A DNA stretch of 64,000 nt from Candidatus Buchananbacteria bacterium. GTDB lineage: Bacteria > Patescibacteriota > Patescibacteriia > 2-01-FULL-39-33. Shown in pieces: positions 16,080 to 55,634 of this stretch. Each line of letters starts with the position of its first letter. The stretch's first letter is position 1. The stretch is taken from the NCBI GenBank assembly GCA_903888345.1, contig CAISTG010000015.1:11474-75473 (forward strand), in the 5' to 3' direction. A program made the position numbers and the translations under genes. The notes under the pieces are model-generated. The model was given only the letters and a program-made list of their open reading frames with translations. It was not told the DNA's origin and did no database searches.

Positions 16080-17262
16080 TTTTTAAGTATTTTTTTAGAG
16101 CCACTAAAGATAAGCCGAAAAACGTTTCTGGCTTATTTTTTATTTGCTCTGTTAGTTTAGCCACATCTATCCAGTGCGGATTGCGATTCTCTTCAATATT
16201 TTCTTTCGGCTCACCCTCTAAATAGCGGCTAACGAAAACTAAAGCAACATAGGAACGATCACCACTCAATTGTTGTAGACAAATATACGGCTGATAGGCT
16301 TCGATAATTTGGCCGTTAGATTCGGGTTGCGAGGCCAGAAATGACGGCATAATTTCACTTAGAACTGATGTTTCTTCGAGTGTTTCCCGTACAGCTGCAA
16401 TCTGAGCCGATTCAAATCGCTTAATTAAACCAGAAGGCAATTCAAATTTGCCGGAATTCGCCGGATCGATGTTTGGCTTATGCCGCGTTTGTAATAATAT
16501 TTCTGTTTGACCGTTATTATTTCTTTCAACGATATTTACCACCACTGGAATACCAATTGATAAATCATCATAATTAATATATTTATTGTGCAGCGGCGCA
16601 AAGTAATTGCTCTTTTCTAAAAAATTATATAATATCGGACAGCTGTGGCTAATTTCTTCTTTTAAGTTTATCAAATCAATCGGCAGATTAAGATCATTTT
16701 TTAAATTCAAATTATAAATAGAATGGCCTTGGCAATTCTTGCTTAAATCATTAAAAGAATTAGAAGTGCTCCAACGCACACCAGAAAAAATATTCGTGTT
16801 TCCCTGATCCTTAAGTCCCATTAAGTAGACACCGCCATTAACTTCGGGGCCAAAAACGTAATCATTATTATCTAACCTAGCAAACCCCGTAATTAAATCT
16901 TCTTGTTTAATAAAGGGAATATCCATGGGGATCAAGATGGCTTTACTATAGCCATGAACATTGGTCAAAGTCTTAAAAATTATATTTAACTTGTCGCTCA
17001 AGCTTGGCGCGGCGTCAATCGTGAAGCCATTAATTGAATAATTTTCCTGGAACCAACGCAAATCAGCCAAGCTATCGGTCGCGACTACTAAATCAAAGTA
17101 ATCGGAATTATTGATTTTATTTAATAAATCAATAAAACAACATTTTGCTAATTCAAACGCAAAATCCTCCGAAGTCTCTTCGGCGATCCTGGTTTTAACC
17201 TTTCCTTTAACTGGGCGCTTAGCAAAGACCACTACAACATTATCATGTTTTTTATTCAACAT
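16072..17262 (-). CDS. Fusion protein: N-terminal DUF2064 (GT-A/nucleotidyltransferase-like) and C-terminal Nudix hydrolase domain (396 aa)
   Basis: VVVFAKRPVKGKVKTRIAEE matches the DUF2064 N-terminus (ivvfaKaPvpGrVKTRL). C-terminal Nudix box GKFELPSGLIKRFESAQIAAVRETLEETSV (GX5EX7REUXEEXGU). Confidence 0.6.
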   Translation of the reverse strand: MLNKKHDNVVVVFAKRPVKGKVKTRIAEETSEDFAFELAKCCFIDLLNKINNSDYFDLVVATDSLADLRWFQENYSINGFTIDAAPSLSDKLNIIFKTLTNVHGYSKAILIPMDIPFIKQEDLITGFARLDNNDYVFGPEVNGGVYLMGLKDQGNTNIFSGVRWSTSNSFNDLSKNCQGHSIYNLNLKNDLNLPIDLINLKEEISHSCPILYNFLEKSNYFAPLHNKYINYDDLSIGIPVVVNIVERNNNGQTEILLQTRHKPNIDPANSGKFELPSGLIKRFESAQIAAVRETLEETSVLSEIMPSFLASQPESNGQIIEAYQPYICLQQLSGDRSYVALVFVSRYLEGEPKENIEENRNPHWIDVAKLTEQIKNKPETFFGLSLVALKKYLKIS

Positions 17263-17266
17263 AGAT

Positions 17267-18262
17267 TTACTGATTAGTATTCCAAATTTTCTTATCTTGG
17301 CCAGGACAACTCTTCAAAAATTCTCGGGATTTAATAATGGCAGTCAAAATCTGTTCTTGATCATGACTAACTAAATACTCCCTTAAAGGAATGATTTGAT
17401 TATCCATGTGGCAGGGCTTGATATTTAAATCAGAATTAATAAATATTTCATTCGAAAGATAACAATCTCGACAAACCTCCGGGTCGCCACAACCAATTTC
17501 AATTGCCACGCCCCAAGTATTTTTATAAGTGAGCTTATTTAATGGCAAATAGCCACACTGTCCCCTGAAGCTATCGTCTTGTTGTGCCATCCTGACGCAA
17601 CCCAAGGCAACTAAACGCTCCAGCAGCTCAGGCAAAGGTAAATTCCAGCCCAGTTGTTCCGCCGTAATCGGTTCAAAATTCAAAAATTTAAATTTAAAAC
17701 CATAATGATCGCATAGATTTAAAAACTCTAAAATATTCTCGGCGTCATCGTTTTTTCCTTTAACGACAACATATTTTAATTCGACTATTGGACGATTTGG
17801 TAGCTGTGATAGATATTCCAAATTGTTTAATAAATGATCGAATTGACCGCTTGTTCCACCGGTCATTTTCTGCCAAGTGGCATAATTAGAGCCATGGATC
17901 GAAACAGCGATTTTATGGCAAACTGATGCCAGTTTATCCATTATAGCGGGTGTCAAACTTACTCCGTTGGAATGGAAAAATAATTCTTTGAACGGTTTTA
18001 ATTTAATATATTCCAGCAAATCCATTATCTTGGGATAGAGGCTCGGCTCACCGCCGGTCAAAGATAGTTTCTTTAAACCGGACCGATGTAAGACGTCAAT
18101 CAAATATATGAGCTCAGAATATTCTGCATGCGCAATATTTTTCTGGCAGATTGGCATACCCTCGTTTGAACAAAAAAAGCACTTAAGATTGCAATAATCA
18201 GTTAGAGCAACACGTAAAGGAAAATTGCCAAGAATTTCCGATTGTTTTTGTTCCAGTGACAT
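17267..18262 (-). CDS. Radical SAM enzyme, MoaA-like paralog A (331 aa), with a C-terminal auxiliary-cluster Cys motif
   Basis: LTDYCNLKCFFCSNEG (CxxxCxxC), LSLTGGEPSLYP, KFLNFEP (cf. MoaA FIEFMP), C-terminal VCRDC-x16-C (MoaA-like C-x2-C-x13+-C). Confidence 0.75.
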   Translation of the reverse strand: MSLEQKQSEILGNFPLRVALTDYCNLKCFFCSNEGMPICQKNIAHAEYSELIYLIDVLHRSGLKKLSLTGGEPSLYPKIMDLLEYIKLKPFKELFFHSNGVSLTPAIMDKLASVCHKIAVSIHGSNYATWQKMTGGTSGQFDHLLNNLEYLSQLPNRPIVELKYVVVKGKNDDAENILEFLNLCDHYGFKFKFLNFEPITAEQLGWNLPLPELLERLVALGCVRMAQQDDSFRGQCGYLPLNKLTYKNTWGVAIEIGCGDPEVCRDCYLSNEIFINSDLNIKPCHMDNQIIPLREYLVSHDQEQILTAIIKSREFLKSCPGQDKKIWNTNQ

Positions 18263-18266
18263 ATGT

Positions 18267-19454
18267 TTAGCAGTATTTAAATTTTTCTTCTTTGTTCCAG
18301 CCCGCGCAATTCATGCCCGGAGCGAGCATTAAATATTCACGAGACAAACGGAAGAGGTCAAATAATTCTTCGTAGTTTTCGGTTTCGATAGCGTGAGTCA
18401 AATCAATTTTAGTATCAAGTACCGCACATGGTTTAATATATAGCCCCTGACCATCATTAGTCGGTTTGATAAACATACACAAGAAATTATAGCAAGACAA
18501 GCAGGCGGCCTTTTGACCGCAGCCAAAAATACTATGTAAGCCGCCAACATTTTTGTAAGTGAAATTCGTGCCCGGGATATAAGTATCGGGATCGTTATGT
18601 CGAGGCGCATCAGCTGGAAAAACACAACCCAGCTTTTCTAATTTTTCAAAAAACTCTTTACGGCCAACAGTATATTTTTTTTGCTCAGGAAATTGCGGTT
18701 CGAACTCCAAAAATTTTGGATGAAAACTATTAGCAGCACAATAATCTAGTAATCGCTGCAACTCTTCTTCACTATCATTGATGCCCCGCATAATAACACT
18801 CTTAATAAAAACTTTATCGCCGATCTGTTGTTTAGTTAAATATTCTAAATTTTCCTGAAGTTTTTTATATTTTCCCACTTGAATCTCTTCCTTAAAATAA
18901 TTATTTAAATTAGAAATTTTATTCCAAGTTGGAAAGAAAAAGGAATTTACCGAAACCCCGATGCGCGAAAATGAATCTTTGAGCCGATCAATAATAGTTG
19001 GGGTCAAAGCAATACCATTACTATGAATGGAAAAACGAATTTGCGGATACTTTTTTGTCCAGTCAATCAATTTAAAATCACCGCTAGTAAAGTCTGGATG
19101 AATTGTTGGCTCGCCACCACTAAAATCAATCATTTTTAGAGTTGTTGATTTAATCAACATATCACCTAATTTCATCACCAAATCGATATTGGCATGACCA
19201 TTAAACTTATCCGCATAACTAGATCCTTCATTAGAACAAAAAACACACCAAGAATTACACTTTGGTGTGAGAGAAATACGCAAACGTATTTTAGCAAACA
19301 AATCAAGCATTTCTTCCCGGCTAAGGTGTTTTTGACCCTTGGCCGCCAATGAATCTTTACTGAGATCTAATACCCTACCATTCTGATCTTTTCTGACGGT
19401 AACTTCCTCTTCCTTAAATTCCTTAGCCAAAGAGACGCTTGTTTGATCTGACAT
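18267..19454 (-). CDS. Radical SAM enzyme, MoaA-like paralog B (395 aa), with a C-terminal Cys-rich auxiliary motif
   Basis: LTPKCNSWCVFCSNEG (CxxxCxxC), FSGGEPTIHP, KFLEFEP, FGCGQKAACLSCYNFLC...IKPC. Clearly paralogous to 17267-18262 (HSNGIALTPTIIDRL vs HSNGVSLTPAIMDKL). Confidence 0.75.
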   Translation of the reverse strand: MSDQTSVSLAKEFKEEEVTVRKDQNGRVLDLSKDSLAAKGQKHLSREEMLDLFAKIRLRISLTPKCNSWCVFCSNEGSSYADKFNGHANIDLVMKLGDMLIKSTTLKMIDFSGGEPTIHPDFTSGDFKLIDWTKKYPQIRFSIHSNGIALTPTIIDRLKDSFSRIGVSVNSFFFPTWNKISNLNNYFKEEIQVGKYKKLQENLEYLTKQQIGDKVFIKSVIMRGINDSEEELQRLLDYCAANSFHPKFLEFEPQFPEQKKYTVGRKEFFEKLEKLGCVFPADAPRHNDPDTYIPGTNFTYKNVGGLHSIFGCGQKAACLSCYNFLCMFIKPTNDGQGLYIKPCAVLDTKIDLTHAIETENYEELFDLFRLSREYLMLAPGMNCAGWNKEEKFKYC

Positions 19455-19477
19455 ATTGTTTTTTAATAATTCTATTG

Positions 19478-19506
19478 ATTATACCCCTCATTTCAATATT
19501 TGTCAA
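19478..19506 (-). promoter_or_regulatory. Consensus sigma70 promoter driving the rSAM-B / rSAM-A / DUF2064-Nudix operon
   Basis: Minus strand reads TTGACA, 17 nt, TATAAT. -35 is plus tgtcaa 19501-19506; -10 is plus attata 19478-19483. About 25 nt upstream of ATG 19454. Confidence 0.6.
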
Positions 19507-19552
19507 TAGCGGCAGAATAAACATATTTTTATGGCCCAATAAATAGCTAATA

Positions 19553-21355
19553 TTAGCTTAAATATAAATGTTGACGACCCAAAACATAGAGACTGTTCAT
19601 GGCGCGAGTTAAGGCAATATAAAGTAAATCTTTCTTGATGTGGGACACCTCGGCATGCAATTCTACCGGTAAACCATTAACTGACAGTAATTCCCCGTCA
19701 ACTCCGACCAAAAACACGGCATCAAATTCCACGCCCTGGGAGTCAATCAGTGACATCACTTTAACATTACTATATTGGCTGAATTGTTGCTGATAAGTTT
19801 TTAATAATTCCTCATTATGCGACAAGATACCCACACTCACCTCTTTCAGCTCCATTAATTTTTCGGTTACATATTCCAATTCTTCTGCTGGCGTTAAAAT
19901 CAATTCTTCTACTCGAGGCCCCGACTTAATCATTTCCGGCACCACCACGTCAAAGCCCAATTCTTTGAGATAAGTTAAAATTTCTTTGGTATTACGATAG
20001 ACCTTGGATAGCTGAACCAGACGCTCGGCTGGCAACTCGCCGCCAATGCCCGATAAATTATTAACCGTGCCTAATCTGACGCGTTGATTAAAGTCACCAA
20101 TATAGACCATCTCACCTATTTTCGCGTTAACCGCTTGGCTAAAGATTGCTAAATGCTCTGGCAAATAATTCTGAAACTCGTCAATAATCATCAATTTGTA
20201 ATCCGCTTTAAACTTACCCTTTTTCCGCTTCAATTCTTTAGTCTTGCCGACCAGCGAATAATAATCTTTTTCAATCTGAAAACCATTATCAATGCCAGCA
20301 ATCGCGCGCAACAAAACTGCTAAGTCCAAACGATCGAGCTGTTTATTATTCTTTTGCACCATCAACCTGGCGTGTCCAGCTTGATCCAAATAGTCACCAT
20401 ACACTGCCTGAAGCAACTTAAACCAATCAGTTTGCCACTCTAATGACTGCTGCGCGCGTAAACCCTGCACTTTCGCCCAGACATAACTAGCTTCGGCATC
20501 AGTTTCATGTTCGGTAATCGTCCAATCAACTAACGGCAGAATATTTTTTGCCCAAGCCGCTAAAGTCGTAATTTCCACGTCCCTAATACCTAACTCTGGC
20601 AACAAATGCGAGAAATAATCTCTGGTACTTTCATCTTGCACGAAAACAATCACTTCGCCATCGCTTACTTGATCCGCAGTTTCTGGTGATTGCAAGAGAT
20701 AAGCAACTCGATGCAAGGCTAGAGTCGTTTTGCCAGAACCAGCTGGACCAGTAACCACTAGCTTACCGCCAAAGCTGGAGCGAATTACCTGGTCTTGCGC
20801 CTTTTCCATTTGCGCCACAATTTCTGGCAGCACAAAGGCAGTCTTACGTGAAGAAAAATATTCTTGATAAATTAATTCGCGCGCAGCAATCTGACTTTCG
20901 GTCGATAAAAATAAGATCTTACCATCATTAATTAAATACTGATCTTTTTTAATTATTTCTCCGCCCTGCTCTCCGCCATGACTGCGGACCATAAAGGCGC
21001 CTGGAACCTCAAACCTAATTTGAGAAATCGGTGACGCCCAAGAATAGATATTTTCTTGATCAAAAGCAAATTTCGAAAAATACAATTCACGAAAATCTTT
21101 TTCGCCGTCGAATTTAATTAAGCAAGAATTAAAATACGGCGATGGATGTAGATGCTGCAAATCATTATAACGCTTGCGATAAGTCGCGATCATGGTTTGA
21201 TAGCTCAGCTTGTCCGCATCGGACTCTTGCGATAAATGCTTCAACGTTAAAATCTCCTCCGGAATACGCTGGAGTTCAGAAACGATCACTTCCCGCTTGT
21301 GTTCCAGTGTCGCCTTAACTTGCTCTAAATACTGGTCTTTTTGGTCTGCTGTCAT
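19553..21355 (-). CDS. UvrD/HelD-like superfamily-1 DNA helicase (helicase IV-like), 600 aa
   Basis: VVTGPAGSGKTTLALHRVAYLL (Walker A with the HelD-style AxHR), IIDEFQNY (DEXQ), YIGDFNQRV, N-terminal coiled-coil-like domain. Confidence 0.7.
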   Translation of the reverse strand: MTADQKDQYLEQVKATLEHKREVIVSELQRIPEEILTLKHLSQESDADKLSYQTMIATYRKRYNDLQHLHPSPYFNSCLIKFDGEKDFRELYFSKFAFDQENIYSWASPISQIRFEVPGAFMVRSHGGEQGGEIIKKDQYLINDGKILFLSTESQIAARELIYQEYFSSRKTAFVLPEIVAQMEKAQDQVIRSSFGGKLVVTGPAGSGKTTLALHRVAYLLQSPETADQVSDGEVIVFVQDESTRDYFSHLLPELGIRDVEITTLAAWAKNILPLVDWTITEHETDAEASYVWAKVQGLRAQQSLEWQTDWFKLLQAVYGDYLDQAGHARLMVQKNNKQLDRLDLAVLLRAIAGIDNGFQIEKDYYSLVGKTKELKRKKGKFKADYKLMIIDEFQNYLPEHLAIFSQAVNAKIGEMVYIGDFNQRVRLGTVNNLSGIGGELPAERLVQLSKVYRNTKEILTYLKELGFDVVVPEMIKSGPRVEELILTPAEELEYVTEKLMELKEVSVGILSHNEELLKTYQQQFSQYSNVKVMSLIDSQGVEFDAVFLVGVDGELLSVNGLPVELHAEVSHIKKDLLYIALTRAMNSLYVLGRQHLYLS

Positions 21356-33097: not shown

Positions 33098-33829
33098 ATG
33101 AATAAACTGTCGTGGATTTTAGCCGTAATTTTCGGATTAATTATTGTTGTTCGGTGCCAGACGGTTATCGCCGCTGAAGACCCGCTTAAAGAGATTAATG
33201 CCAGCGGCTTCCCACTTACTACGGGTTTTCATTGGGAATACAATTACGTCAGTGAAGACCAAGATCCTAATGGCAAGTCATTGGCTGACCCCTATGGCAG
33301 TCAGGATGGACCCAAGGTCAAGGTAAATCGGGTCGAGCAGACGATGACCATGCAAGTTGGCGAGATTTTGATCGAAAATGGCAATATCAGGGCTGATGTC
33401 ACTGGTAATAGTTTACTAATCTTTGCCAATCCGGAAAGTGTCCGCGACTACAGTTGGGTTTATCAACCCTCAACTGGCGGTTTCTGGGAAGGGACGACTT
33501 CATTACGTAACGATTTCGTTGATAATCGACTCGGTTTAACTGCTGGCCGACCATTACTGCTGTTGCCGCCAAAAATCGGCCGACACTGGGGAGAAATATC
33601 GGAAGTTAAGCGTAACGATACGATGTATCGCTGGGAAGTTGAGACTAAAGAAGTTGTCAAAGTTCCCGCCGGTAACTTTATGTGCTATCGCCTAGCCTAT
33701 CGCACTAACCCCGATCACCAGATCATTTGGTTTTGCCCCAAGGTCGGCATTGTTAAAATGCAATATGTGCATCACGGCACAATCATGAATACGTTTATTG
33801 AACTTACCGCTTATGGTCAAAAAAAATAA
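33098..33829 (+). CDS. Secreted hypothetical protein (243 aa)
   Basis: SD aggag 7 nt upstream of ATG 33098. Signal peptide MNKLSWILAVIFGLIIVVRCQTVIA. The track ORF starts upstream at 33005 without an RBS. Confidence 0.5.
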   Translation: MNKLSWILAVIFGLIIVVRCQTVIAAEDPLKEINASGFPLTTGFHWEYNYVSEDQDPNGKSLADPYGSQDGPKVKVNRVEQTMTMQVGEILIENGNIRADVTGNSLLIFANPESVRDYSWVYQPSTGGFWEGTTSLRNDFVDNRLGLTAGRPLLLLPPKIGRHWGEISEVKRNDTMYRWEVETKEVVKVPAGNFMCYRLAYRTNPDHQIIWFCPKVGIVKMQYVHHGTIMNTFIELTAYGQKK

Positions 33830-33888
33830 GCACAACAAAACCCGTCAGATAACTTCTGGCGGGTATTTTAATATTATCACTGCCAGCT

Positions 33889-34641
33889 TTATTTAGTCGC
33901 AAAATTAAAAAAACCACCGCTACCCCCATAATTACATTGATTGCATAATGGCGAAACTGTCCGATCTAAATTATCAATCGACTGGCGAAAAGACTCAAAA
34001 GCGACATTTGTCCAAATATCTTCCAACCGATTATCTTTAACATTACCAAAACAATTAATCTCATAAAAATCACAACAACAACTGACAATCTTGCCACTGG
34101 GCCGCACACATAATACATTATGAATTCGATCGCAACCAGCCTGAAGTGCCTGTTGGGGTTTTGCTGCCCCCTCATGGCTAATATTACCGCCTCGATTATC
34201 TAGAAGAAACGGTTGCCGCTGATCAATGATCTCAATCAGATAATCTCGTGATTTTTTAAAATTACTAATCTTAGCAAAAGTCGCATCGTCATAAGTCGAA
34301 ACCTTAAGTTCACTTAAGCCAGCAGCAAACAGCCGATCCAACTTATCAAGATCTAACAAATCGCCATTACTGGCAATCATATGCCAAGCGTCAGGATTTT
34401 TTTGTTTGGAATAATTAATAAACTCGAAAATCCGTGGATCCGTTAGGGGCTCGTTAGTTTCAAAATAACCAATACGTCCCTTAAAGCCTAAGTCGGCTAG
34501 ATTATCAACAATTTTTTTAAATAATTCTGCACTTAATTCAATATTTTCCGGTTGATCACAATGACCATAATAACAATAAGAGCATCGACGTGTGCACCGA
34601 TTATTGGTTTGTATTTTGATGTGTTGAAATAATTTTGTCAC
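33889..34641 (-). CDS. Radical SAM enzyme with a C-terminal Cys-rich SPASM/twitch-like region (250 aa)
   Basis: NNRCTRRCSYCYY (CxxxCxxC). C-terminal ...CDRIHNVLCVRPSGKIVSCCCDFYEINCFGN...PLCNQCNYGG. Confidence 0.7.
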   Translation of the reverse strand: MTKLFQHIKIQTNNRCTRRCSYCYYGHCDQPENIELSAELFKKIVDNLADLGFKGRIGYFETNEPLTDPRIFEFINYSKQKNPDAWHMIASNGDLLDLDKLDRLFAAGLSELKVSTYDDATFAKISNFKKSRDYLIEIIDQRQPFLLDNRGGNISHEGAAKPQQALQAGCDRIHNVLCVRPSGKIVSCCCDFYEINCFGNVKDNRLEDIWTNVAFESFRQSIDNLDRTVSPLCNQCNYGGSGGFFNFATK

Positions 34642-34644
34642 AAA

Positions 34645-35055
34645 TTACTGCCAAATTTTATTAAGCTCGTCCCTTTTAATAAAGGGGTCGACTTCCTCAC
34701 TGGCAAATAAGTCAGCTTTAGAAAACCAAGCTGATGCGCTATGCTCTTCAGAAATTACAACTACTTCCGAACCAGTCAAAACTTCATTAATAGTAAAAAC
34801 AATACCCAACAAATCTTTGCCAGTATGATTGCTCTGCCAAATCCAAACGGGATCGCCCACCGTTAATCGTAGCCCAGTTTCTTCTTCTAATTCCCTTTTT
34901 AAGCCAGCCTTAACTTCTTCACCCTGATGAATGGTTCCACCAGGCAAAGTATAGAGTCCGCCCGGTCGATTTCTTTTTAATAATAAAACCTGATTAGCAT
35001 TATTAACAATAATAGCCTGAGTTGTAACTCTAGCATTGAGCTTTTCCATAAACAT
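34645..35055 (-). CDS. Nudix hydrolase (136 aa)
   Basis: Nudix box GGTIHQGEEVKAGLKRELEEETGL. Alternative start at MEKLN (35049). Confidence 0.75.
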   Translation of the reverse strand: MFMEKLNARVTTQAIIVNNANQVLLLKRNRPGGLYTLPGGTIHQGEEVKAGLKRELEEETGLRLTVGDPVWIWQSNHTGKDLLGIVFTINEVLTGSEVVVISEEHSASAWFSKADLFASEEVDPFIKRDELNKIWQ

Positions 35056-35185
35056 TTGATAATTAATTTTATACTATCTATTATGTCACATTATTACATT
35101 ATTAGCACACTCGCCCAAAAATTACAAGGATTAGATCAATTAAAAAAGCGCTTGTTTAGACAAAACAAGCGCCAAACTAACAAAC

Positions 35186-35770
35186 TTACCAAACCTCATA
35201 CTTAATTACTGCCCAAGGCGTCAGCAACAAGATCCAAAAGTACAACCAGGGGCTCTGATGCTCCACATAGTACAGGTCACGTTCGAGTCGACGTTCTGGC
35301 TCAATGTGGCTTTTCCGAAAACCATAGACTTGGGCTAGTCCTGACATGCCCGGCAACACTTGCAGTCGCTTTTTGTATTGCGGCAGCTGACTAGCATACT
35401 GCTCAACCAAGTGGGGTAACTCTGGTCGCGGTCCGACTAAACTCATGTCGCCTTTGATGACATTAACCAATTGTGGTAATTCATCGAGACTATAGCGACG
35501 GAGCAAGTGCGAAAACCTTGAGATCCGAGGATCGTGTTTGGTAATCGGACCAAGTTTACGCATCGCTAAATTTTCCGGCGTTGGCTTCATTGTCGTAATC
35601 TTATACATACCAAACTGCCGGCCGTCCTTACCAATCCGGTTGTCCTTAAATATTGCATGGCAACGCAGATGGCACTTGGTCACGACGATAATCGTTACCA
35701 GAACCGGCGAAACCAGCACTAATATAAACAGCGCTAACACCAAATCGACTAACCTATTTACAACCTTCAT
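35186..35770 (-). CDS. Polyprenyl-phosphate glycosyl-1-phosphate transferase (bacterial sugar transferase family, minimal PglC/WbaP-like), 194 aa
   Basis: N-terminal TM helix. DELPQLVNVIKGDMSLVGPRPE and PGMSGLAQVYG motifs. Overlaps the upstream gene by 4 nt. Confidence 0.8.
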   Translation of the reverse strand: MKVVNRLVDLVLALFILVLVSPVLVTIIVVTKCHLRCHAIFKDNRIGKDGRQFGMYKITTMKPTPENLAMRKLGPITKHDPRISRFSHLLRRYSLDELPQLVNVIKGDMSLVGPRPELPHLVEQYASQLPQYKKRLQVLPGMSGLAQVYGFRKSHIEPERRLERDLYYVEHQSPWLYFWILLLTPWAVIKYEVW

Positions 35771-36708
35771 AACTCACCCTCCATAATGGCTTTGATTTTC
35801 GCCGTAACCCAATCGAGGTTACCGAAAATTTCGAAAGTCTGACTTTGTTTGTAAATATCCCTGGCCAAAGCCAATACTCGCGTACTGACTTCCTTTTGGT
35901 TGAGTGGCTGATAGACACTTTTAGTTGTCACCAGCACCAACTGCAAAGGATCATAAAAAAACGATAGTGGTTGATATAGAGCAACTTCGGAGAAGCTACT
36001 TTCCACATCCACTAGTCGGCGACAAGTACAATATTCATCGTTCACCGGAACGACCTTAACTCGCACTACTAAATCGATTGGCGTCGCCTCAGTCTTCTTC
36101 TGACAAAGGTCCGCCGCCACCGCAATAAATCTGTCTTTCCCGAACGTCTTCAACAAATACAGATACTCGGGAAAATATAACCGAATGGTTTCCGGTCGCA
36201 GTCGAATCGGCTTAGTACCGCCAAACATGGTCGGTCGGCCCTGTAATCTGCCGATCAATAAGCGATCATTACCCAGATACCGATAACCGTCTTTAAGCAA
36301 CTTCAGGCTGGTAATGGACTTGCCAGAAGCGAATCCACCAACCAACATTAAGCCACGTCCTTCCGGTGACCGCAGTCCAACTGCATAAGCCAAAACATTA
36401 TCGACAGACAAGTAAAGGTGCGAAAAATGATAGACCAGTAAAATTTCTAAATCATTCCTCCAGAGCGCACTTTCGTTAAAATAGAAGAAAGTCTGCCGAG
36501 CCAGAGGATCAATATAGAGAGACGTTTCGGGCGCCACCATGACCGTAAATTCCCAATCATAGTCACGAGAAATCGCCTTGTAACAATAATAACTCGGAAT
36601 AGCCCGATCCGCGACATCCTGATAATAGGCCAGGACTGCCGGCGAGTTGGTTTTCAGCAGAATTTTGAAATCCAGCGAACTTAATGTGCAGGAAAGAATC
36701 TCTGGCAT
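35767..36708 (-). CDS. HprK-related kinase-like protein (HPr-kinase C-terminal-domain fold), 313 aa
   Basis: GLMLVGGFASGKSITSLKLLKDGYRYLGNDRLLIG parallels the HprK P-loop GvLitGdSGvGKSetALeLi..G..LvaDDrv. No N-terminal HprK domain. Confidence 0.5.
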   Translation of the reverse strand: MPEILSCTLSSLDFKILLKTNSPAVLAYYQDVADRAIPSYYCYKAISRDYDWEFTVMVAPETSLYIDPLARQTFFYFNESALWRNDLEILLVYHFSHLYLSVDNVLAYAVGLRSPEGRGLMLVGGFASGKSITSLKLLKDGYRYLGNDRLLIGRLQGRPTMFGGTKPIRLRPETIRLYFPEYLYLLKTFGKDRFIAVAADLCQKKTEATPIDLVVRVKVVPVNDEYCTCRRLVDVESSFSEVALYQPLSFFYDPLQLVLVTTKSVYQPLNQKEVSTRVLALARDIYKQSQTFEIFGNLDWVTAKIKAIMEGEL

Positions 36709-36709
36709 C

Positions 36710-37270
36710 TTAAGTCCTCCTTATTCGGATTTGTGTCCGAGCAAATTCATACGCCTCATCACCATTCCCGACAATAACTAAACGCGGACCTAACAATTCT
36801 TTCAGAAACTCCCGTGTCTGATCAAGTGACTCCTGAAATAAAACCAGATCAGTCACATCCGGAGTATCACCGCGTTTGACCATGTTTTTCAGACAATCGT
36901 CAAATGGTGTTGCGATCAGTACCACAAAAGTCGGCCACCAACTCCTGGTCAGTGGCAGCAACTCAGCGGCGGTAATTAGTCGCTTCCGGAAACACAGATT
37001 AGAAAAATCACAGAATGACGAACGCTCCATTAGCAATAAATCGGTACAAGCCGACAATTGCCGCAAGATTCGTTGTCGATAACTCACCCACTCCAGAATA
37101 CTAGTCTCATCCCTAGTTGCTCGTTTCAGACTATAAGGAAAACCAGTACCAAACCAGAGGGTTTCAGTTTGCGGCGAAACTTCGGCCGCTAACCGTTTAA
37201 TAACAGTGGTTTTACCCGCTCCCATTAAACCCTCGAAGTCAATTGACAAGGCTTGTTTGAGTCTAATCAT
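36710..37270 (-). CDS. P-loop nucleoside/nucleotide kinase-like protein (186 aa)
   Basis: DFEGLMGAGKTTVIKRLAAE Walker-A in dNK/Tmk-like context. Confidence 0.5.
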   Translation of the reverse strand: MIRLKQALSIDFEGLMGAGKTTVIKRLAAEVSPQTETLWFGTGFPYSLKRATRDETSILEWVSYRQRILRQLSACTDLLLMERSSFCDFSNLCFRKRLITAAELLPLTRSWWPTFVVLIATPFDDCLKNMVKRGDTPDVTDLVLFQESLDQTREFLKELLGPRLVIVGNGDEAYEFARTQIRIRRT

Positions 37271-37276
37271 GATGAC

Positions 37277-38263
37277 TTACCTCCAAATCCATGATTCACC
37301 GGTCTGCTGATAACGTAACTGCTGGGCGTGATAATGACTCGGCCAGAAACAACCAGAGCAATGCTCTGTATCCTTAGCTCGAGCTTCCAAAACTTTAGAA
37401 AAGTTGCTTGAGTCCTCCAAAGAAAAGATTGAGTACTGACTCAAGTGCTCTCCTTTGATGTCATTGCAACTCATTAATACGCCATCGGCATCGATCCTTA
37501 ACTCACTAATTACTGGAGCGCAATGCCAATTAAGGTTAATGGCGTAGTCCGGCAAGATAGTCAAGTATTCAACCGTATTAGATAACAACGCACCATCACG
37601 CTTCGCAGCAATCATCTTACCGACAAACTCTTGCAGTCGACCCTTATCCGACTCAGTAAAAGCAGGTGGTAAATTTCGGCCACGCGTTTGCCAATGATCG
37701 CCCGGACTAGCATGATAAGGCAGAATATACAGAGAAATTCCTTGTGCCGTTAACTGTTTCAAAATCAACTCAATCTGCTCCATGTTCTCGGGACGCAAAA
37801 CTGAATATGCAGTTAATTGCGGCACGCCAAGTTGCTGCATCAAAGCTAAAACTTCGTGAGCACGCAGACTCTTAGCGGTACTACAACTATCAAAACCATT
37901 TGGTCCGAGAACATCCATACTAGTGGAAAATCGTTGCAATCCTGCTCGCGCCAAACCGGCATAAATCTCCAGATCCGACATCGAGTTGGAAACAATGGCT
38001 AAATCCAATCCAGTCACCTCACGGTTAAACTGAACTAATTCAACAATGCCCGGATAGGTTGTTGGTTCTCCACCTAAAATAGAAACCTTATTAATACCTA
38101 AAGATTGCAAAATCAAAAAAGCTTTTTGCCAATCTTTCAGTGTTAATTCGTGGTAGTTCAACGCCAGCTTTCGGGTGCTGCAATGCTCACAAGAGAGATT
38201 ACAGCGTCGAGTAATGTAGATGCCGCAGGTCGTGATCGGATAGACGTTAGTGTCGATGTTCAT
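37277..38263 (-). CDS. Radical SAM enzyme with a C-terminal SPASM/MoaA-like auxiliary Cys region (329 aa)
   Basis: ITRRCNLSCEHCS (CxxxCxxC), SILGGEPTTYPG, WHCAPVISELRIDADGVLMSCND, CSGCFW. SD aaggag 7 nt upstream of ATG 38263. The track's upstream M at 38308 lacks an RBS. Confidence 0.75.
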   Translation of the reverse strand: MNIDTNVYPITTCGIYITRRCNLSCEHCSTRKLALNYHELTLKDWQKAFLILQSLGINKVSILGGEPTTYPGIVELVQFNREVTGLDLAIVSNSMSDLEIYAGLARAGLQRFSTSMDVLGPNGFDSCSTAKSLRAHEVLALMQQLGVPQLTAYSVLRPENMEQIELILKQLTAQGISLYILPYHASPGDHWQTRGRNLPPAFTESDKGRLQEFVGKMIAAKRDGALLSNTVEYLTILPDYAINLNWHCAPVISELRIDADGVLMSCNDIKGEHLSQYSIFSLEDSSNFSKVLEARAKDTEHCSGCFWPSHYHAQQLRYQQTGESWIWR

Positions 38264-38330
38264 ATAACATCTCCTTTTGTTGTGTTTTAAGTTGTCAATG
38301 TCCAGCAATAGACATCAAGATAACTCTTAA

Positions 38331-38359
38331 CTATAGTCGATAGTCTGATCTTTGTCAAG
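38331..38359 (-). promoter_or_regulatory. Consensus sigma70 promoter for the 6-gene rSAM/kinase/sugar-transferase/Nudix operon
   Basis: Minus strand reads TTGACA, 17 nt, TATAGT (plus tgtcaa 38354-38359, plus actata 38331-38336). Confidence 0.55.
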
Positions 38360-38481
38360 CCTTTTCTACTAATGCAAGGGAATTAGTGATTACGCCGAGA
38401 TTATTAAGAATAATACACTCAAGCTGATTCTATTTTGTTAATTCTCTATGTGCTATAATAAACACAAATAACCAAACTTAT

Positions 38482-39573
38482 ATGAAAAAATATTACCTCG
38501 GCTTAATTACTTTATTTTTCTTGTCGGTCGCCCCAGTTAGTGCCGCCACCGTCGCTAAAGTCGTTGTCTATAAACCAATAACTCCCGTAGCTTACACGCC
38601 AATAACTTGGGCCAAAGCGCCGGGTATCAATTCATATTTTCGTGCACCTGAAGGTAGCGGAGCGATTGATTTTATTACTCGCATCTATTTACCGCAAAAT
38701 CAAATTAATTTTGTAACGGCGACCGCCACTCCGATCAACCAAACCATTACTGTCGTCGATACTGAAACTACCGTAGCGCCTGATTCCAACACTAGTAGTA
38801 ATGATATTGGCTCCTACCCTAGTCTAGCGTTTAAACGCTTAGGCGCCGAGACCGCCAAAAACTTAACACCAAATACGAAGTTCCTCTGGGACGCGCCTTT
38901 CTTCAACATGCAACCGGAGTTTACTGATTTAAGCATGGCACTTAAATATACTAATGGCACTTCGACGACTATCACCGGCGGTGTTCGCTCTTTGGCCGAT
39001 TTAGCTCACCCACGCAAAATGTTGGTTGTTAATAATCAAACCGGCCAAGCCACCATTAAAGATTTTGATTCCGAATATTTTATAAATAGCACTAATGGTG
39101 ATTTAGCGATTGAGGGCTTTGCTCCGACTGTTGCCAAATCCGACAATGCTAGTGGCGCAGCCTCGCGTTTATTCGTAGGGGTTTCGAGTGACGGTAAAGA
39201 GTTAATGGTTTATTGCAGTCAACTGGCTACCGTTGGTGAAGCTAGCGCCGCCCTCGAGAATGCCGGGGCTTCTATAGACAATCAAATTCAAGTCGATGGC
39301 GGTGGCAGTGCCGCTTGTGGCTATAATCTGCCTGGTCAATACTTTGTCGAACCAACTCGCACGTTACCCTTGCTAATGGGCGCTGAAACAATTTTACTGC
39401 GCGGTAACATTACTTTAAGTAATACTAAAGTCCGTAATGGCGCGACCGCCAAATCCCCCATCATTAAGCAATTAGCCAAAGGCGTCGCTGTCCGCGTCTA
39501 CGAGGAAAAATCCGGCTACTACCGCATCAGCGACAAACAATGGGTCTTAAAAACAGCCGTCAAGAAAATTTAA
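38482..39573 (+). CDS. Secreted phosphodiester glycosidase (NAGPA-domain) family protein with a C-terminal bacterial SH3 domain (363 aa)
   Basis: Signal MKKYYLGLITLFFLSVAPVSA. LFVGVSSDGKELMVYC...IQVDGGGSAA (NAGPA LDGGGSS motif). C-terminal RNGATAKSPIIKQLAKGVAVRVYEEKSGYYRI (SH3b-like). TGcTATAAT extended -10 at 38451-38459. Confidence 0.6.
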   Translation: MKKYYLGLITLFFLSVAPVSAATVAKVVVYKPITPVAYTPITWAKAPGINSYFRAPEGSGAIDFITRIYLPQNQINFVTATATPINQTITVVDTETTVAPDSNTSSNDIGSYPSLAFKRLGAETAKNLTPNTKFLWDAPFFNMQPEFTDLSMALKYTNGTSTTITGGVRSLADLAHPRKMLVVNNQTGQATIKDFDSEYFINSTNGDLAIEGFAPTVAKSDNASGAASRLFVGVSSDGKELMVYCSQLATVGEASAALENAGASIDNQIQVDGGGSAACGYNLPGQYFVEPTRTLPLLMGAETILLRGNITLSNTKVRNGATAKSPIIKQLAKGVAVRVYEEKSGYYRISDKQWVLKTAVKKI

Positions 39574-44457: not shown

Positions 44458-44763
44458 CTCAGCGGACTGGATTCGAACCAGTAACCTACCGGTTACACTT
44501 ATCCCTAACTTTCGTTAAAGCGTGGACTATATCATTACCTTTTTTCCTGACGGAATTTTAGGTATCGGGCGCTTCGAATTAGCTACTGCTAACCCTACTC
44601 CCTTGCGGGATAGTCTCTGCACCTTTCCGCCGAGGCGGACTTGGCTCAGGATTACCATTTTAAAGGCTTCCCTGAATTCACCCGATTTTCATTCCGAAGT
44701 TTCCTTCGGAAGCTGCGTCTTATTTGTTCACAGCCGGTTGCTCTACCATTGAGCTACCGCTGA
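44458..44763 (-). tRNA. tRNA-Asn(GUU) interrupted by a 234-nt group I intron in the anticodon loop (between nt 35 and 36)
   Basis: 5' exon (44730-44763): TCAGCGG TA GCTC AATGGTA GAGC A ACCGG CTGT. 3' exon (44458-44495): TAA CCGGT AGGTT ACTGG TTCGAAT CCAGT CCGCTGA G. Spliced loop CUGUUAA and G73 match E. coli tRNA-Asn. Acceptor, D, anticodon and T stems are all perfectly paired. Confidence 0.8.
44496..44729 (-). ncRNA. Group I self-splicing intron (tRNA-anticodon-loop type)
   Basis: Contains the conserved R element GTGCAGAGACTATCC (consensus GUUCAGAGACUA) and S element GATATAGTCC (consensus AAGAUAUAGUCC), which form P7. P/Q-like AATTCAGGGAAGCC / AATCCTGAGCC. Internal guide GCAGCU pairs with the exon end GGCUGU with a U-G pair at the splice site. 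The intron ends in G (omega-G) before TAACCGGT. Too short to encode a protein. Confidence 0.75.
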
Positions 44764-45010: not shown

Positions 45011-45658
45011 ATGCAAGCTAAGCATGATTTGCGATATTTAGACTTACTACTATGCGCCATCATGATTATTCCCATGGCGTTAACAATTATGATTTTCGCG
45101 CTACTGATTAAACTCACTACCAATCATTCCGCTTTCTTTATCCAAAAACGAATCGGCCTGAATGGCGCGATTATTAACGTCGTTAAGCTCCGAACAATGT
45201 ATGAGCAGGAAAAAACCAACTGCTTGGGCCGATTTTTGCGGCGCTTTGGTCTCGATGAACTACCGCAAGCCTGCTGGAATATTCCCCGCGGCGAAATGTC
45301 GTTTTTCGGACCACGCCCCTTGCCCCTAGAAGAGGCCGGGGCTAACATTGTCAGCGGTCGAACCTGTCGCCGCTCCGGCATTATCAATATCTTTTCAGCC
45401 ATTGCCGGTCCAGCTAAAGGCCATCAGCCGACGGAACTGCATTATTATTTCGAAGACTTCGAATTGCAACATTGGTCAAAATTATGGATAGCCAAGCTCA
45501 TTCTGGCTTTGATTCATTCATTGTTGTGGCGCAAAAACATGGCGGCGCGTTTAAGATTCTTCGGTTTTGACCAGCAACTACTGGAACTACTGAAGGAAAC
45601 GACCAACCGCACACCAGGAGATAATCATGGGATTTCATCGATGCCAATACTGCCTTGA
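45011..45658 (+). CDS. Second bacterial sugar transferase-family protein (polyprenyl-phosphate glycosylphosphotransferase-like), 215 aa, in a GC-richer segment
   Basis: N-terminal TM. DELPQACWNIPRGEMSFFGPRPLPLEE (DELPQ...GPRP motif). C-terminal amphipathic helix similar to gene 35186-35770. Confidence 0.65.
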   Translation: MQAKHDLRYLDLLLCAIMIIPMALTIMIFALLIKLTTNHSAFFIQKRIGLNGAIINVVKLRTMYEQEKTNCLGRFLRRFGLDELPQACWNIPRGEMSFFGPRPLPLEEAGANIVSGRTCRRSGIINIFSAIAGPAKGHQPTELHYYFEDFELQHWSKLWIAKLILALIHSLLWRKNMAARLRFFGFDQQLLELLKETTNRTPGDNHGISSMPILP

Positions 45659-46268
45659 ACCAACCAGGGAGCCACATCAATTTCCCAATCTGTCGACTGG
45701 CGATATTAATTTATCGTTCACTAGTGGACGGAGTTGGGTCATGCCGGATATGATCTGTCATTACATGGCAGATCACAAGTGGTTACCCCCGCAAGATTTC
45801 ATCGACGACGTGCTGACTAGCAAGCTCTGCATAAAGCACCAAGGCTCGAGTGGCTACCAAACAGTTGCCCAATCAATTAGGCGAGTAACTACTATTATGA
45901 CCGGAACTAAAATCGGTTATCTAACCGGTGATTTTACCACCGGAACTGTACCGCCCGGTTTCCTAGCTCGATTGAAGATACTAATGGATTTGGCCACGAC
46001 TAATTTAATGCGGGTGCAAACCAAAGGTTTACCGCCAGCCTACATTAAATCAGCGGCCATCAAGGATCAAAACGGCGTCGTCTATGTTGGCCATCGCCAT
46101 CACAAAATCTTCCCGCTGATGCCCGAAGAATTGATTCGCGACAGCGTCCAGGGATTCGTCACTAATGCCGACCGCTTCGTTACTCGTGAAGAAGGCGCCG
46201 CTATCGCTTATACTGCCGGGCAAATTCCCGAACCGAAGAAGACTTTATTTTCCGAAGATCTTTATTAA
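45627..46268 (+). CDS. Hypothetical protein (213 aa), possible Cys/His metal-binding N-terminus
   Basis: ORF overlaps the previous gene by 32 nt (start uncertain). HRCQYC...CHYMADH. No confident family. Confidence 0.4.
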   Translation: MGFHRCQYCLEPTREPHQFPNLSTGDINLSFTSGRSWVMPDMICHYMADHKWLPPQDFIDDVLTSKLCIKHQGSSGYQTVAQSIRRVTTIMTGTKIGYLTGDFTTGTVPPGFLARLKILMDLATTNLMRVQTKGLPPAYIKSAAIKDQNGVVYVGHRHHKIFPLMPEELIRDSVQGFVTNADRFVTREEGAAIAYTAGQIPEPKKTLFSEDLY

Positions 46269-53559: not shown

Positions 53560-55623
53560 CTAACGATCCCCTTTTACTGACTCAATTTCATCTAAAACCT
53601 CATCAGCGGGCGGGTTGGTTGCTAACGTTACCGAATTACTCGCAACTACTGGTGGCACATAATTTTCTTCTAAGACGCCGTCTTCGGTTTCAATTAATGG
53701 TTCGGGCTTAGGTAACAAGGAGGCCAAACTCATCGCTGGAGCTTTAATGGTTTCTTCTTTAATGGCCAGACCTTCCATCTGACGTACCTGCGGATCACGC
53801 TCCTCGGTTTTCTTGCGCCTCTCTTCACGAACTTTCTTAAAGCAATCATCACAATAAGTTGGACGGCCTAAATCTGGTTTGAATTTCAATTTAAAATCCT
53901 TATGGCACAATGTACAACTAGCCGCATACAATTCGGTGCTTAGTGGCTTGTCGCGACCAACTAACCGTGGTGGTTCTATTTTAACTGGCGTTGCAGCTAT
54001 CGGTCGTTCATTCGGACGATCCGAGCGCATCGATGCCGGACCACTAATGGGAGTACTCTGGCGTTCTTCGCGACGCGGCATTGGCCGATCGCTTCCGGAA
54101 CGCGTTTGATCGCGACGCGGATCTAATCGTGGTCGCTCCTCACGCGGTGGACGCTCGCTAAACTTCGGCTTCGGTGACAAAGTGCCCTGACCTAATTCTG
54201 ACAGACTAATGGTCGGACCAGCAGCATTTAGCGCTTCCTTCATTGGTACAATCTCACCTAATTGAAATTCTTCATTCGGACCAGGTTTACCTTCACTACT
54301 AGCGCTCGAAACCATACCCATCTTCGATGCCAAATCCATGCCACTCCAACGATTAATGCGCTCTTCCACTTCCGCGCGCGGATGCGAATAGCGTTCGCGT
54401 GAAACTTGAATAACTTTTTGAGTGCTATTGGTCCGATAATCGCCAAATAGCGGCGGTAAAGTGGCCGCCGAAAACGGATCAGAAGAAACACCATCAATCA
54501 TTAACTTTAAATAAATGGCGAAAGCTGGCAAATTAACTAAGTCCTCTTCCGTAAAAAATGGAGCGAATTCCAGAACTAATTTCTCAGCATCAGCAGCACC
54601 GACACGGAAACAAATCAGTGTACCGACGTTACCAAACACACCGGCCTGTACTGTCTCTGGCAATTGCTCGATATATTGGTGCGCCACCACTAAATTCAAA
54701 CGATATTTTCTAGCTTCAGACAAAATGTCGGCAAAAGAATCAGTCGCAAAATTCTGAAATTCGTCGACATACAGATAAAAATCTTTACGTTCGTTTTCTG
54801 GCATGTCCACGCGACTCATCGCCGCCATGTATAATTTTGTAACTATCATTGAGCCCAATAATTGCATCGTATCTTCACCAATACGACCCTTGGATAAATC
54901 CAAAATTAAGATTTTTTGGTTGTCCATGACGTCACGCAGGTCGATGGTTGATTTGACTTGGCCAATAATATTTCTAATCAAAAAGTTTGATAAAAACTGT
55001 CCAACTTTATTTTGAATAGGAGAAATAACTTCCTGCAACACGCGATCATTCCATTTCGTAAATTCATTAACCCAGAAACTGCGTACCACCGGATCCTTGA
55101 TTTTTTCGACTACCTTTTCGCGATAATCTTTCTCCACCAGAATTCTCATAACGCCCAACATAGTGGAACCAGGATAATCCAACAAAGCCATAATCGTGTT
55201 GCGCAAAATATATTCCAAACGTGGTCCCCAACTTTCAGCGAATTGCTTTTTGAAAATAGAAACAATGCCGGAAGCAATCAAATGCTTATGCGATTCTTCC
55301 ACCGATTCCATGATATTAAAAGCGATCGGAAACTGCGTATCCGCCGGTGAAAAGTAAATAACATCATTAATACGATTGCTCGGAATAAAATCCAGAATTT
55401 TCTGGGCCGTATCGCCATGAGGATCGATGTAACAACAACCCTCGCCATTGATAATATCGGAGATGATCAAATTTTCTAGTAAGGTCGTTTTACCCATACC
55501 GGTTTTACCGATAATGTACATATGTCGGCGACGATCATCGCGCTTAATACCAAAAGAGCGCGCTTCATTGCGATAATTAGTGGAACCAAAAATTGTAACG
55601 TCGTTTTTGTTGGCTTCAGCCAT
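53560..55623 (-). CDS. VirB4/VirD4/HerA-superfamily P-loop ATPase (AAA-like/DUF87-type) with a C-terminal disordered Arg/Pro-rich region and a Zn ribbon (687 aa)
   Basis: HMYIIGKTGMGKTTLLENL...CCYIDPHGD (Walker A plus the PHG motif typical of this clade). DFYLYVDEFQNF (Walker B). LNLVVAHQYIEQL (TQ..QL-like). C-terminal CTLCHKDFK...YCDDCFKK. Confidence 0.55.
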   Translation of the reverse strand: MAEANKNDVTIFGSTNYRNEARSFGIKRDDRRRHMYIIGKTGMGKTTLLENLIISDIINGEGCCYIDPHGDTAQKILDFIPSNRINDVIYFSPADTQFPIAFNIMESVEESHKHLIASGIVSIFKKQFAESWGPRLEYILRNTIMALLDYPGSTMLGVMRILVEKDYREKVVEKIKDPVVRSFWVNEFTKWNDRVLQEVISPIQNKVGQFLSNFLIRNIIGQVKSTIDLRDVMDNQKILILDLSKGRIGEDTMQLLGSMIVTKLYMAAMSRVDMPENERKDFYLYVDEFQNFATDSFADILSEARKYRLNLVVAHQYIEQLPETVQAGVFGNVGTLICFRVGAADAEKLVLEFAPFFTEEDLVNLPAFAIYLKLMIDGVSSDPFSAATLPPLFGDYRTNSTQKVIQVSRERYSHPRAEVEERINRWSGMDLASKMGMVSSASSEGKPGPNEEFQLGEIVPMKEALNAAGPTISLSELGQGTLSPKPKFSERPPREERPRLDPRRDQTRSGSDRPMPRREERQSTPISGPASMRSDRPNERPIAATPVKIEPPRLVGRDKPLSTELYAASCTLCHKDFKLKFKPDLGRPTYCDDCFKKVREERRKKTEERDPQVRQMEGLAIKEETIKAPAMSLASLLPKPEPLIETEDGVLEENYVPPVVASNSVTLATNPPADEVLDEIESVKGDR

Positions 55624-55634
55624 AAAATTAGTGT

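Follow-up and report, generated by a model that had tools for sequence, protein, structure and literature searches.

A rare gene module of radical SAM enzymes, P-loop proteins and a phosphoglycosyl transferase in a Patescibacteria genome, with a possible role in tailoring lipid-linked carbohydrates

BtrN, the 2-deoxy-scyllo-inosamine dehydrogenase of butirosin biosynthesis (PDB 4M7S/4M7T), is a radical S-adenosylmethionine (SAM) enzyme that acts as a carbohydrate or cyclitol alcohol dehydrogenase and not as a peptide maturase, and both BlsE (cytosylglucuronate decarboxylase) and MoaA (GTP 3',8-cyclase) have nucleoside or nucleotide carbohydrate substrates. Radical SAM genes are also found beside small kinase genes of the deoxynucleoside kinase (dNK)/Tmk type in the prokaryotic viperin and nucleotide kinase pairs, the viperins being without a four-cysteine auxiliary cluster, and beside genes for TIGR04355, TIGR04352 and ScmC proteins in cassettes with radical SAM-SPASM enzymes. 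Cassettes of the GRASP-with-SPASM or SynChlorMet type are defined, according to their TIGRFAMs descriptions, by an ATP-grasp and/or a PqqD-like protein together with a small candidate precursor. PglC and small monotopic polyprenyl-phosphate phosphoglycosyl transferases (PGTs; PDB 8G1N, 8E37), like the catalytic domain of WbaP, carry a full Bac_transf domain and have a size of about 195 amino acids (aa). Here we describe a six-gene module from a 64,000-nucleotide stretch (hereafter the window) of contig CAISTG010000015.1 of a Candidatus Buchananbacteria bacterium (Patescibacteriota), whose genes are denoted R1, K, H, P, N and S in order (Table 1). Every domain in the module is of a known kind and it is the assembly that is new, comprising a BtrN-type radical SAM enzyme, a second twitch-domain radical SAM enzyme, a kinase of the phosphoenolpyruvate carboxykinase (PEPCK)/HprK fold coupled to a minimal PGT, a dNK-like kinase and a Nudix hydrolase; literature searches for this gene combination found no published description. 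We tentatively favour the reading that the module tailors a nucleotide-sugar or nucleoside-type small molecule which ends on polyprenyl phosphate, and that it is not a peptide system.

The six genes are co-directional on the minus strand and tightly packed, separated by 6 nucleotides (nt) between R1 and K, 1 nt between K and H, 130 nt between P and N and 3 nt between N and S, with a 4-nt overlap of H and P (35767-35770). The gene coordinates and the overlap were found again as given in a first-pass annotation of this DNA, and its domain calls of Radical_SAM, Bac_transf, NUDIX and Radical_SAM with SPASM agree with Pfam and NCBIfam profile scans. An Rfam scan of 33700-38600 returned no regulatory RNA at gathering threshold, nor did one relaxed to E ≤ 1.

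Table 1. Positions of the module's genes and predicted signals in the window, and the make-up of related metagenomic loci (positions given for L003 are those of its own contig).
Feature	Position	Strand	Description
R1	37277-38263	minus	radical SAM enzyme, 328 aa, ATG at 38263 behind AGGAG ribosome-binding site
K	36710-37270	minus	small P-loop kinase, dNK/Tmk type, 186 aa
H	35767-36708	minus	two-domain PEPCK/HprK-superfamily P-loop protein, 313 aa
P	35186-35770	minus	minimal monotopic polyprenyl-phosphate PGT, PglC type, 194 aa
Hairpin and T-run	35141-35173	minus	intrinsic-terminator-like; 11-bp stem, 5-nt loop, 12 nt past PGT stop
Promoter-like site	35098-35127	minus	TTGTAA-18-AATAAT ahead of Nudix gene, 9/12 consensus match
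N	34645-35055	minus	Nudix hydrolase, 136 aa
S	33889-34641	minus	BtrN-family twitch-domain radical SAM enzyme, 250 aa, GTG start
Terminal hairpin	33835-33870	not assigned	between S and convergent 33005-33829 gene
L001			R1-K-H-P-N-S; flanks RNHCP and UvrD
L007			H-P-N-S; contig ends
L004/5			R1-K-H-P-N; then DUF7718, DUF5647, Bro-N
L089			K-H-P; contig ends
L091			AhcY-like gene, K-H-P; AhcY-like NAD enzyme at R1's place
L093-95			R1-K-H-P-N; then two unknowns and three-gene ABC-2 transporter; divergent UbiA prenyltransferase upstream
L003			R1-H-[IS1595]-N-S; no K or P
L003 R1-H pair	10001-11943
L003 IS1595, first copy	12067-12732
L003 IS1595, second copy	19410-20075

The last gene of the module, S, encodes a protein of the same length as BtrN (250 aa) that aligns with it from end to end (phmmer against 4m7s, E 1.5e-25; residues 1-237 to 1-236, 29% identity over 234 columns). 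Cysteines 16/20/23 and 170/188/233/236 of S align to cysteines 16/20/23 and 169/187/232/235 of BtrN, such that all seven Fe-S ligands of BtrN are matched, three in the CxxxCxxC motif of the radical SAM cluster and four at the auxiliary cluster of the twitch domain, and profile scans recover PF13186 (SPASM, 36.6 bits) in addition to Radical_SAM. Full-length homology and the three plus four cluster cysteines place S in the BtrN family, and S is predicted from its sequence to be a carbohydrate or cyclitol enzyme of the BtrN type. It differs from BtrN in three extra cysteines (CCC at 188-190, C178, C197) and in following a Nudix gene in a Patescibacteria locus, and profile scans of the cluster and its flanks identified no 2-deoxystreptamine pathway genes (2-deoxy-scyllo-inosose synthase, aminotransferase) adjoining it.

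P matches PF02397 (Bac_transf) with 183.8 bits against a cutoff of 27, covering profile positions 2-179 of 179. Among solved structures PglC (8g1n) is its best match, aligning to residues 4-190 of P at E 5.6e-29. The motifs aligned to PglC comprise the DE dyad (SLDELPQL), GPRP and the Ser-Pro of the N-terminal re-entrant hydrophobic helix (VSPVL in P, TSPII in PglC), identifying P as an intact small monotopic PGT of the PglC type. All named PGT equivalogs score under their cutoffs (best TIGR03025, 223.2 against 295.55 bits, and WcaJ, 206 against 410.75), and P is without the N-terminal domains of TIGR03025/WcaJ-type equivalogs. Unlike PglC and WbaP, P lies outside any pgl-type or O-antigen/capsule locus, has no adjacent glycosyltransferases or flippase, and is uniquely coupled to a PEPCK/HprK-fold protein, as the genes for H and P overlap by 4 to 14 nt in the window and in four related loci (L001, L004, L089, L093) and are predicted to be translationally coupled.

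The other radical SAM enzyme, R1, matches PF04055 with 63.6 bits, while its best NCBIfam matches (MoaA, PqqE and many others) lie far under their cutoffs. Nine homologs share an invariant CxxxCxxC motif and invariant C248, C266, C302 and C305, and these C-terminal cysteines surround a DADGxxxxC hairpin to form a twitch-like auxiliary cluster motif. A Foldseek search with an AlphaFold2 model of R1 (pTM 0.84) gave BlsE as the best mutual match (TM 0.66/0.66), followed by MoaA (0.60/0.60) and viperins (0.55 to 0.60). BlsE and MoaA are the best full-length fold matches but share only 15 to 18% sequence identity with R1, which scores 63.6 bits against the 284 of the NCBIfam MoaA model (TIGR02666), over its N-terminal half only, and 30.3 bits against the 400 of the BlsE model. 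R1 likewise falls outside the prokaryotic viperins (pVip model NF038283, 33.6 bits against 180, residues 15-96 only), PADLOC pVip matches being limited to its N-terminal ~80 residues. It differs from viperins in its four-cysteine auxiliary cluster, and pVip loci contain no counterpart of the module's PGT, H, N or S.

For K, the first-pass call of a dNK/Tmk-like kinase is weakened, being sub-threshold in Pfam. PF01712 (dNK) scores 23.8 bits and PF02223 (Tmk) 18.4, both short of their cutoff of 27 and over the P-loop region only. A phage thymidylate kinase family in PHROG matches residues 5-157 (3.5e-8), the PADLOC model VakA matches K over its full length (1.4e-6), and the motifs FEGLxGxGKTT, ER(S/C) and RGD are invariant in four orthologs. 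H is a compact two-domain P-loop protein of the PEPCK/HprK superfamily, and it is at this level of fold that its description as HprK-like survives; at profile level the description fails, TIGR04355 reaching 37.7 of the 200 bits required (E 1.2e-9, with residues 97-195 aligned to positions 137-233 of the 351-position model), PF07475 15.3 of 33.3 bits and TIGR00679 14.4 of 240 bits, leaving H outside both HprK-related kinase B and HPr kinase/phosphorylase. With HPr kinase/phosphorylase it has only the P-loop domain fold in common, and HprK's own N-terminal domain is absent; it is also far smaller than ATP-dependent PEPCK, and similarity in sequence is marginal (E 0.016). TIGR04355, TIGR04352 and ScmC proteins resemble H in the P-loop region, in a length of ~310 aa and in adjoining radical SAM genes, but the partners of H are a PGT, a Nudix hydrolase and a dNK-like kinase and not an ATP-grasp protein, PqqD or a candidate peptide. 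N matches PF00293 with 62.4 bits (cutoff 21.1) and has a complete Nudix box (GTIHQGEEVKAGLKRELEEETGL), read from its translation as G-TIHQG-E-EVKAGLK-RE-L-E-EE-T-G-L and fitting GX5EX7REUXEEXGU. The solved structures nearest to it are those of a MutT-related protein, an NMNAT/Nudix fusion and GDP-mannose mannosyl hydrolase (E 1e-9 to 1e-7), and N also matches the defence-candidate Nudix PDC-S07 (8e-13).

The module is very rare, being found in about eight metagenomic loci with differing flanks, and among its members only the window, from Patescibacteria, comes with taxonomic evidence. In 5.8 billion protein clusters a word-indexed search recovered only five members of the H family and approximately nine relatives of R1, and profiles run exhaustively over 1.84 billion representatives found 7, 60 and 1,178 relatives of H at E ≤ 1e-30, 1e-10 and 1e-3, respectively, the outer shell including true TIGR04355, TIGR04352 and ScmC proteins. 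No relative was found in a contig scan of GTDB species representatives with the H alignment, nor on IMG/VR viral contigs with the H and R1 alignments; a scan of metagenome contigs returned only the JGI copy of L001, and a DNA search of the region against plasmids gave only 65-80-nt matches inside generic sugar-transferase genes. Across eight loci H is always present, P directly follows it in all but one, and N is never missing where the contig runs on, while L091 has a replacement for R1, L004/5 and L093-95 lack S, and L003 lacks K and P. N and S are orthologous between loci at 53 to 65% identity (N of L093, 53%; S of L001 and L003, 65% and 58%) and, since the flanks of these loci are unrelated, this suggests that the module travels as a unit.

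More distant relatives have other partners. L090 (3396-9980) encodes an R1 homolog (44% identity, E 3e-92) and two tandem H paralogs forming an A/B-like pair (hhalign 97.6%), together with a zinc-dependent alcohol dehydrogenase resembling threonine and scyllo-inosose dehydrogenases, a Gfo/Idh/MocA protein, a xylose-isomerase-like TIM barrel (AP_endonuc_2) and a glyoxalase, and resembles a pathway for a cyclitol or sugar. The genes that follow encode three unknown proteins, one of them with HEAT repeats, and the locus has no PGT. L092 combines a distant H with a radical SAM-SPASM protein, an amidohydrolase of the nucleoside/nucleobase deaminase type, a methyltransferase and a Ham1 NTP pyrophosphatase. 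An aminotransferase in L091 was considered as a sugar aminotransferase and rejected as an ordinary SerC (499.8 bits, cutoff 253). At the place of S in L004 and L005 are small DUF7718 and DUF5647 genes with a 4-nt overlap and a Bro-N protein (4704-6266 in L004), which look like mobile-element or phage-derived content beside the module. The most distant R1 homolog (34% identity), in L006 (2486-5841), follows with a 4-nt overlap a 782-aa protein of the metallo-beta-lactamase fold that has a weak match to Anti-Pycsar Apyc1-type proteins; the contig ends there.

The first-pass annotation had placed all six genes under one promoter, TTGACA-17-TATAGT. The site is present (38330-38358, minus strand), is the best consensus match of the region at 11 of 12 positions and is separated from R1 by a leader of ~60 nt and the ribosome-binding site; a TTGAC(A/T) box, a 16-17-nt spacer and a TA-rich hexamer also precede R1 in L001, L003 and L004. 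It is unlikely to serve the whole module, as the gap between P and N (35056-35185) contains a hairpin with a T-run (dG -15.6 kcal/mol, z -4.87, 0 of 200 shuffles equally stable) and, after it, a promoter-like box. This succession of hairpin, T-run and -10-like box is found again directly 3' of the PGT stop in L001, L004/5, L007, L089 and L093/95, giving six loci including the window in which the hairpin keeps its position although its sequence is unrelated from one locus to the next; the four that were folded have z-scores of -3.1 to -7.0, and the boxes read TGGTATAGA, TGGTATAAA or TATAAT in L001, L007, L004, L093 and L089. Conservation of this terminator-like element and box therefore suggests two adjacent transcription units in a 4+2 layout, R1-K-H-P and then N(-S), and not a single sigma-70 operon. 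The hairpin past S matches in a terminator scan at 33840-33864 (plus strand) and folds on the minus strand with a dG of -11.9 (z -3.7), so it is probably a bidirectional terminator.

Base composition changes at the same internal terminator. The R1-K-H-P block (35186-38263) has a GC content of 45.4%, N-S (33889-35055) 37.7% and the whole window 41.1%. The GC-richer 35.2-38.3 kb segment noted at first pass is thus real, but the step is modest and lies inside the gene-to-gene scatter of the window (per-gene z-scores -1.4 to +1.55, the only larger value being PGT GC3 at z 2.2), such that reading it as horizontal acquisition of part of the operon was an overstatement for the window. Corresponding steps from R1-K-H-P to N(-S) occur in L001 (49.7 to 43.6%) and L004 (38.6 to 34.1%), and the most extreme is in L003, where R1-H has 55.4%, N(-S) 33.4% and the whole locus 38.9%. 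This repeated high-then-low pattern makes mobility of the R1-H block plausible. In the 542-kb contig of L003 an IS1595-family transposase gene sits exactly at the place of K and P, with a second copy 7 kb off, which suggests recent horizontal arrival and remodelling mediated by the insertion sequence (IS) in that locus.

On the gene content, motifs, folds, synteny and hairpin described above we propose the following substrate class, order of steps, roles for K, H and N and fate of the product. A nucleotide-activated sugar or nucleoside-type carbohydrate would be altered by the two auxiliary-cluster radical SAM enzymes, R1 as a member of the structural group of BlsE, MoaA and viperin, and S, in the manner of BtrN, oxidising a secondary alcohol of the ring to a ketone. 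K and H would set phosphorylation states, and P, coupled to H, would move the phospho-sugar onto polyprenyl phosphate and so seed an envelope or exported glycoconjugate. N may cleave an NDP-linked (nucleoside diphosphate-linked) intermediate or side product, and in some lineages the product may leave the cell through the ABC-2 transporter. The first-pass preference for modification of a nucleotide-sugar or lipid-linked sugar over a peptide is upheld by the BtrN homology of S, the intact PglC-type P and the lack of a precursor or RiPP recognition element (RRE; RiPP, ribosomally synthesised and post-translationally modified peptide). Also consistent with this reading are the H/P overlap, the fold match of R1 to BlsE and then to MoaA and viperins, the dNK/Tmk motifs of K, the complete Nudix box of N with GDP-mannose mannosyl hydrolase among its nearer relatives, and a gene order that is the same in about eight independent loci with unrelated flanks. 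Accessory genes in the relatives agree with it as well, namely the ABC-2 exporter and UbiA in L093-95, the sugar or cyclitol oxidoreductases of L090, and the NAD enzyme at the place of R1 in L091.

Several observations weigh against this proposal. The assignments of K and H are under curated family cutoffs, and the R1 fold matches the peptide maturases SuiB, SkfB and PqqE in Foldseek at similar E-values. The loss of S from L004/5 and L093-95 and of K and P from L003 indicates that the six genes are no obligate set. As there is no nucleotidyltransferase, glycosyltransferase or flippase in the cluster of the window, a complete glycan pathway is not visible, and K and N could equally serve free nucleotide chemistry. 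Sequence alone names no substrate, and the finding is of limited practical value until one is at hand.

The main alternative is a pathway to a nucleoside or nucleotide analogue, a viperin-like antiviral or an antimicrobial, released as a free product against phages, competitors or the host of the episymbiont, which we consider possible though rather unlikely. K and H would phosphorylate a nucleoside, R1 (and S) would modify the ribose of an NTP by radical chemistry, N would remove pyrophosphate or detoxify, and the PGT would be related to immunity or export or would attach the product to a lipid. The VakA match of K, the pVip models and viperin/MoaA structures matched by R1 and the PDC-S07 match of N are all in keeping with such a pathway, as are two of the related loci: the AhcY-like gene that replaces R1 in L091 encodes an adenosylhomocysteinase-like enzyme, which acts on the 3'-OH of a nucleoside ribose, and L092 has an H-like protein alongside the deaminase-type amidohydrolase and Ham1. 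It would also fit the patchy distribution and unrelated flanks of the module, the IS element and the 55% GC of R1-H within the 39% GC locus in L003, and the Bro-N, DUF7718 and DUF5647 genes beside L004. However, the viperin and pVip matches are to a generic N-terminal 80 residues (33.6 bits, where 180 are needed), S is homologous to a cyclitol dehydrogenase and not to a nucleotide enzyme, and in seven of eight loci the PglC-type PGT comes immediately after H, mostly with overlapping genes. We know of no precedent for such PGT-H coupling in nucleotide-based defence. The IMG/VR viral contigs searched with the H and R1 alignments gave no matches, and the flanks of the window are housekeeping genes and not a defence island.

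R1-K-H-P and N-S could instead be functionally independent neighbours, kept together by descent or chance and forming no six-gene pathway. The conserved terminator and promoter between P and N, a GC step of ~5 to 20 points between the blocks in four loci, and the absence of S from L004/5 and L093-95 would all be in keeping with this. It is nonetheless improbable given that, in spite of unrelated flanks, every locus whose contig continues has an orthologous Nudix gene behind the block (53% identity for the window against L093), and that N stays in L003 even after the IS insertion; adjacency kept across at least six contexts is the usual sign of functional linkage.

The first-pass annotation also saw in the pairing of an HprK-related kinase with SPASM enzymes a hallmark of certain RiPP-like systems. 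On such a reading the HprK-like kinase would phosphorylate a precursor that the two radical SAM/SPASM enzymes cross-link, the precursor lying elsewhere or having been missed. HPr-kinase homologs do phosphorylate lasso precursors (PMC8498205), H is distantly related to TIGR04355, TIGR04352 and ScmC, companions of radical SAM/SPASM genes, and the core of R1 is like those of SuiB, SkfB and PqqE. The module nevertheless does not belong with these cassettes, as H is under the family cutoff (37.7 against 200 bits) and their ATP-grasp and PqqD partners and precursor were not found. The absence of a precursor and of a PqqD-like element, already remarked on at first pass, was borne out: of the open reading frames (ORFs) of at least 12 aa that for the most part fall outside annotated genes in five loci, none combines a ribosome-binding site with a counterpart in another locus, and the Pfam hits of the six genes, their flanks and the ~8 related loci include no PqqD/RRE, protease or ATP-grasp. 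The CxxxCxxC motif starts at residue 16-21 in both R1 and S, leaving no room for an N-terminal peptide-recognition domain in either. Together with the non-peptide partners in L090 and L092, the BtrN homology of S, and a PGT, a Nudix hydrolase and a dNK-like kinase that have no role in known RiPP logic, these observations make peptide maturation highly improbable, and they caution that an HprK-like protein and a SPASM enzyme are in themselves no proof of a RiPP.

The genes flanking the module in the window (encoding an ABC-F ATPase, hemerythrin, malic enzyme, ApbE, RpoD, DnaG and Tgt) are ordinary chromosomal genes. The Tgt protein shares 81% identity with its counterpart in a Candidatus Buchananbacteria metagenome-assembled genome (MAG), and most next-best matches come from other MAGs of Patescibacteria type, indicating a chromosomal locus of a candidate phyla radiation (CPR)/Patescibacteria bacterium. 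The divergent upstream neighbour (38482-39573, plus strand) encodes a protein that has a signal peptide, an SH3_3 domain at its C terminus and a borderline match to NAGPA, a phosphodiester glycosidase (24.7 bits, cutoff 25); a sugar-1-phosphodiester-cleaving enzyme adjoining a PGT cluster is suggestive, though this neighbour is not kept in other loci. Further along, a truncated second Bac_transf ORF (45011-45658, plus strand) matches only the first ~60-80% of family models and is followed by an overlapping DUF7919 ORF (45627-46268, plus strand). It lies next to a group I intron (44503-44739, minus strand; Rfam 96.3 bits) around which no tRNA or rRNA was detected. Approximately 15 kb from the cluster, 53560-58704 (minus strand) encodes a TrwB/TraG-like type IV coupling protein with a treble-clef zinc finger (53560-55623), an unannotated 568-aa protein and a sigma-70 region-4/HARE-HTH protein, and may be the remnant of a conjugative or mobile element.

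The window also contains a second cluster of radical SAM, Nudix and kinase genes (14751-19454, minus strand, plus 15543-16079, plus strand). It comprises two MoaA-like radical SAM genes (18267-19454 and 17267-18262), a TIGR04282/CofC-like transferase fused to a Nudix domain (16072-17262), a dTMP-kinase-like P-loop protein (14751-15446) and a divergent CYTH/class IV cyclase-like gene, with a UvrD-like helicase (19553-21355) upstream. We considered whether this cluster (14.7-19.5 kb) is a duplicate of the six-gene module and rejected this, the similarity being generic and at the level of motifs only.

Patescibacteria have tiny genomes, and a conserved six-gene module that includes two oxygen-sensitive radical enzymes is therefore unlikely to be one that they could do without. 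A more specific and speculative version of the preferred reading, which we regard as unlikely but worth stating, is that the module makes a hitherto undescribed class of polyprenyl-phosphate-linked (nucleoside-)carbohydrate remodelled by radical SAM enzymes, that the PEPCK-fold kinase forms a physical complex with the minimal PglC-type transferase, and that the product is a surface or exported molecule peculiar to a few episymbiotic Patescibacteria, with a role perhaps in attachment to a host or in antagonism. If true, a BtrN-type enzyme (S) and an HprK/PEPCK-fold kinase (H) would for the first time be assigned to the initiation of an envelope glycoconjugate. Should the preferred reading hold, BtrN-type sugar chemistry by radical SAM enzymes would reach past the aminoglycoside antibiotics into envelope or exported glycoconjugates, minimal phosphoglycosyl transferases would gain a new partner protein, and a branch of the poorly understood HprK-related kinase superfamily (~1,200 representatives) would have a small-molecule or lipid-linked role.

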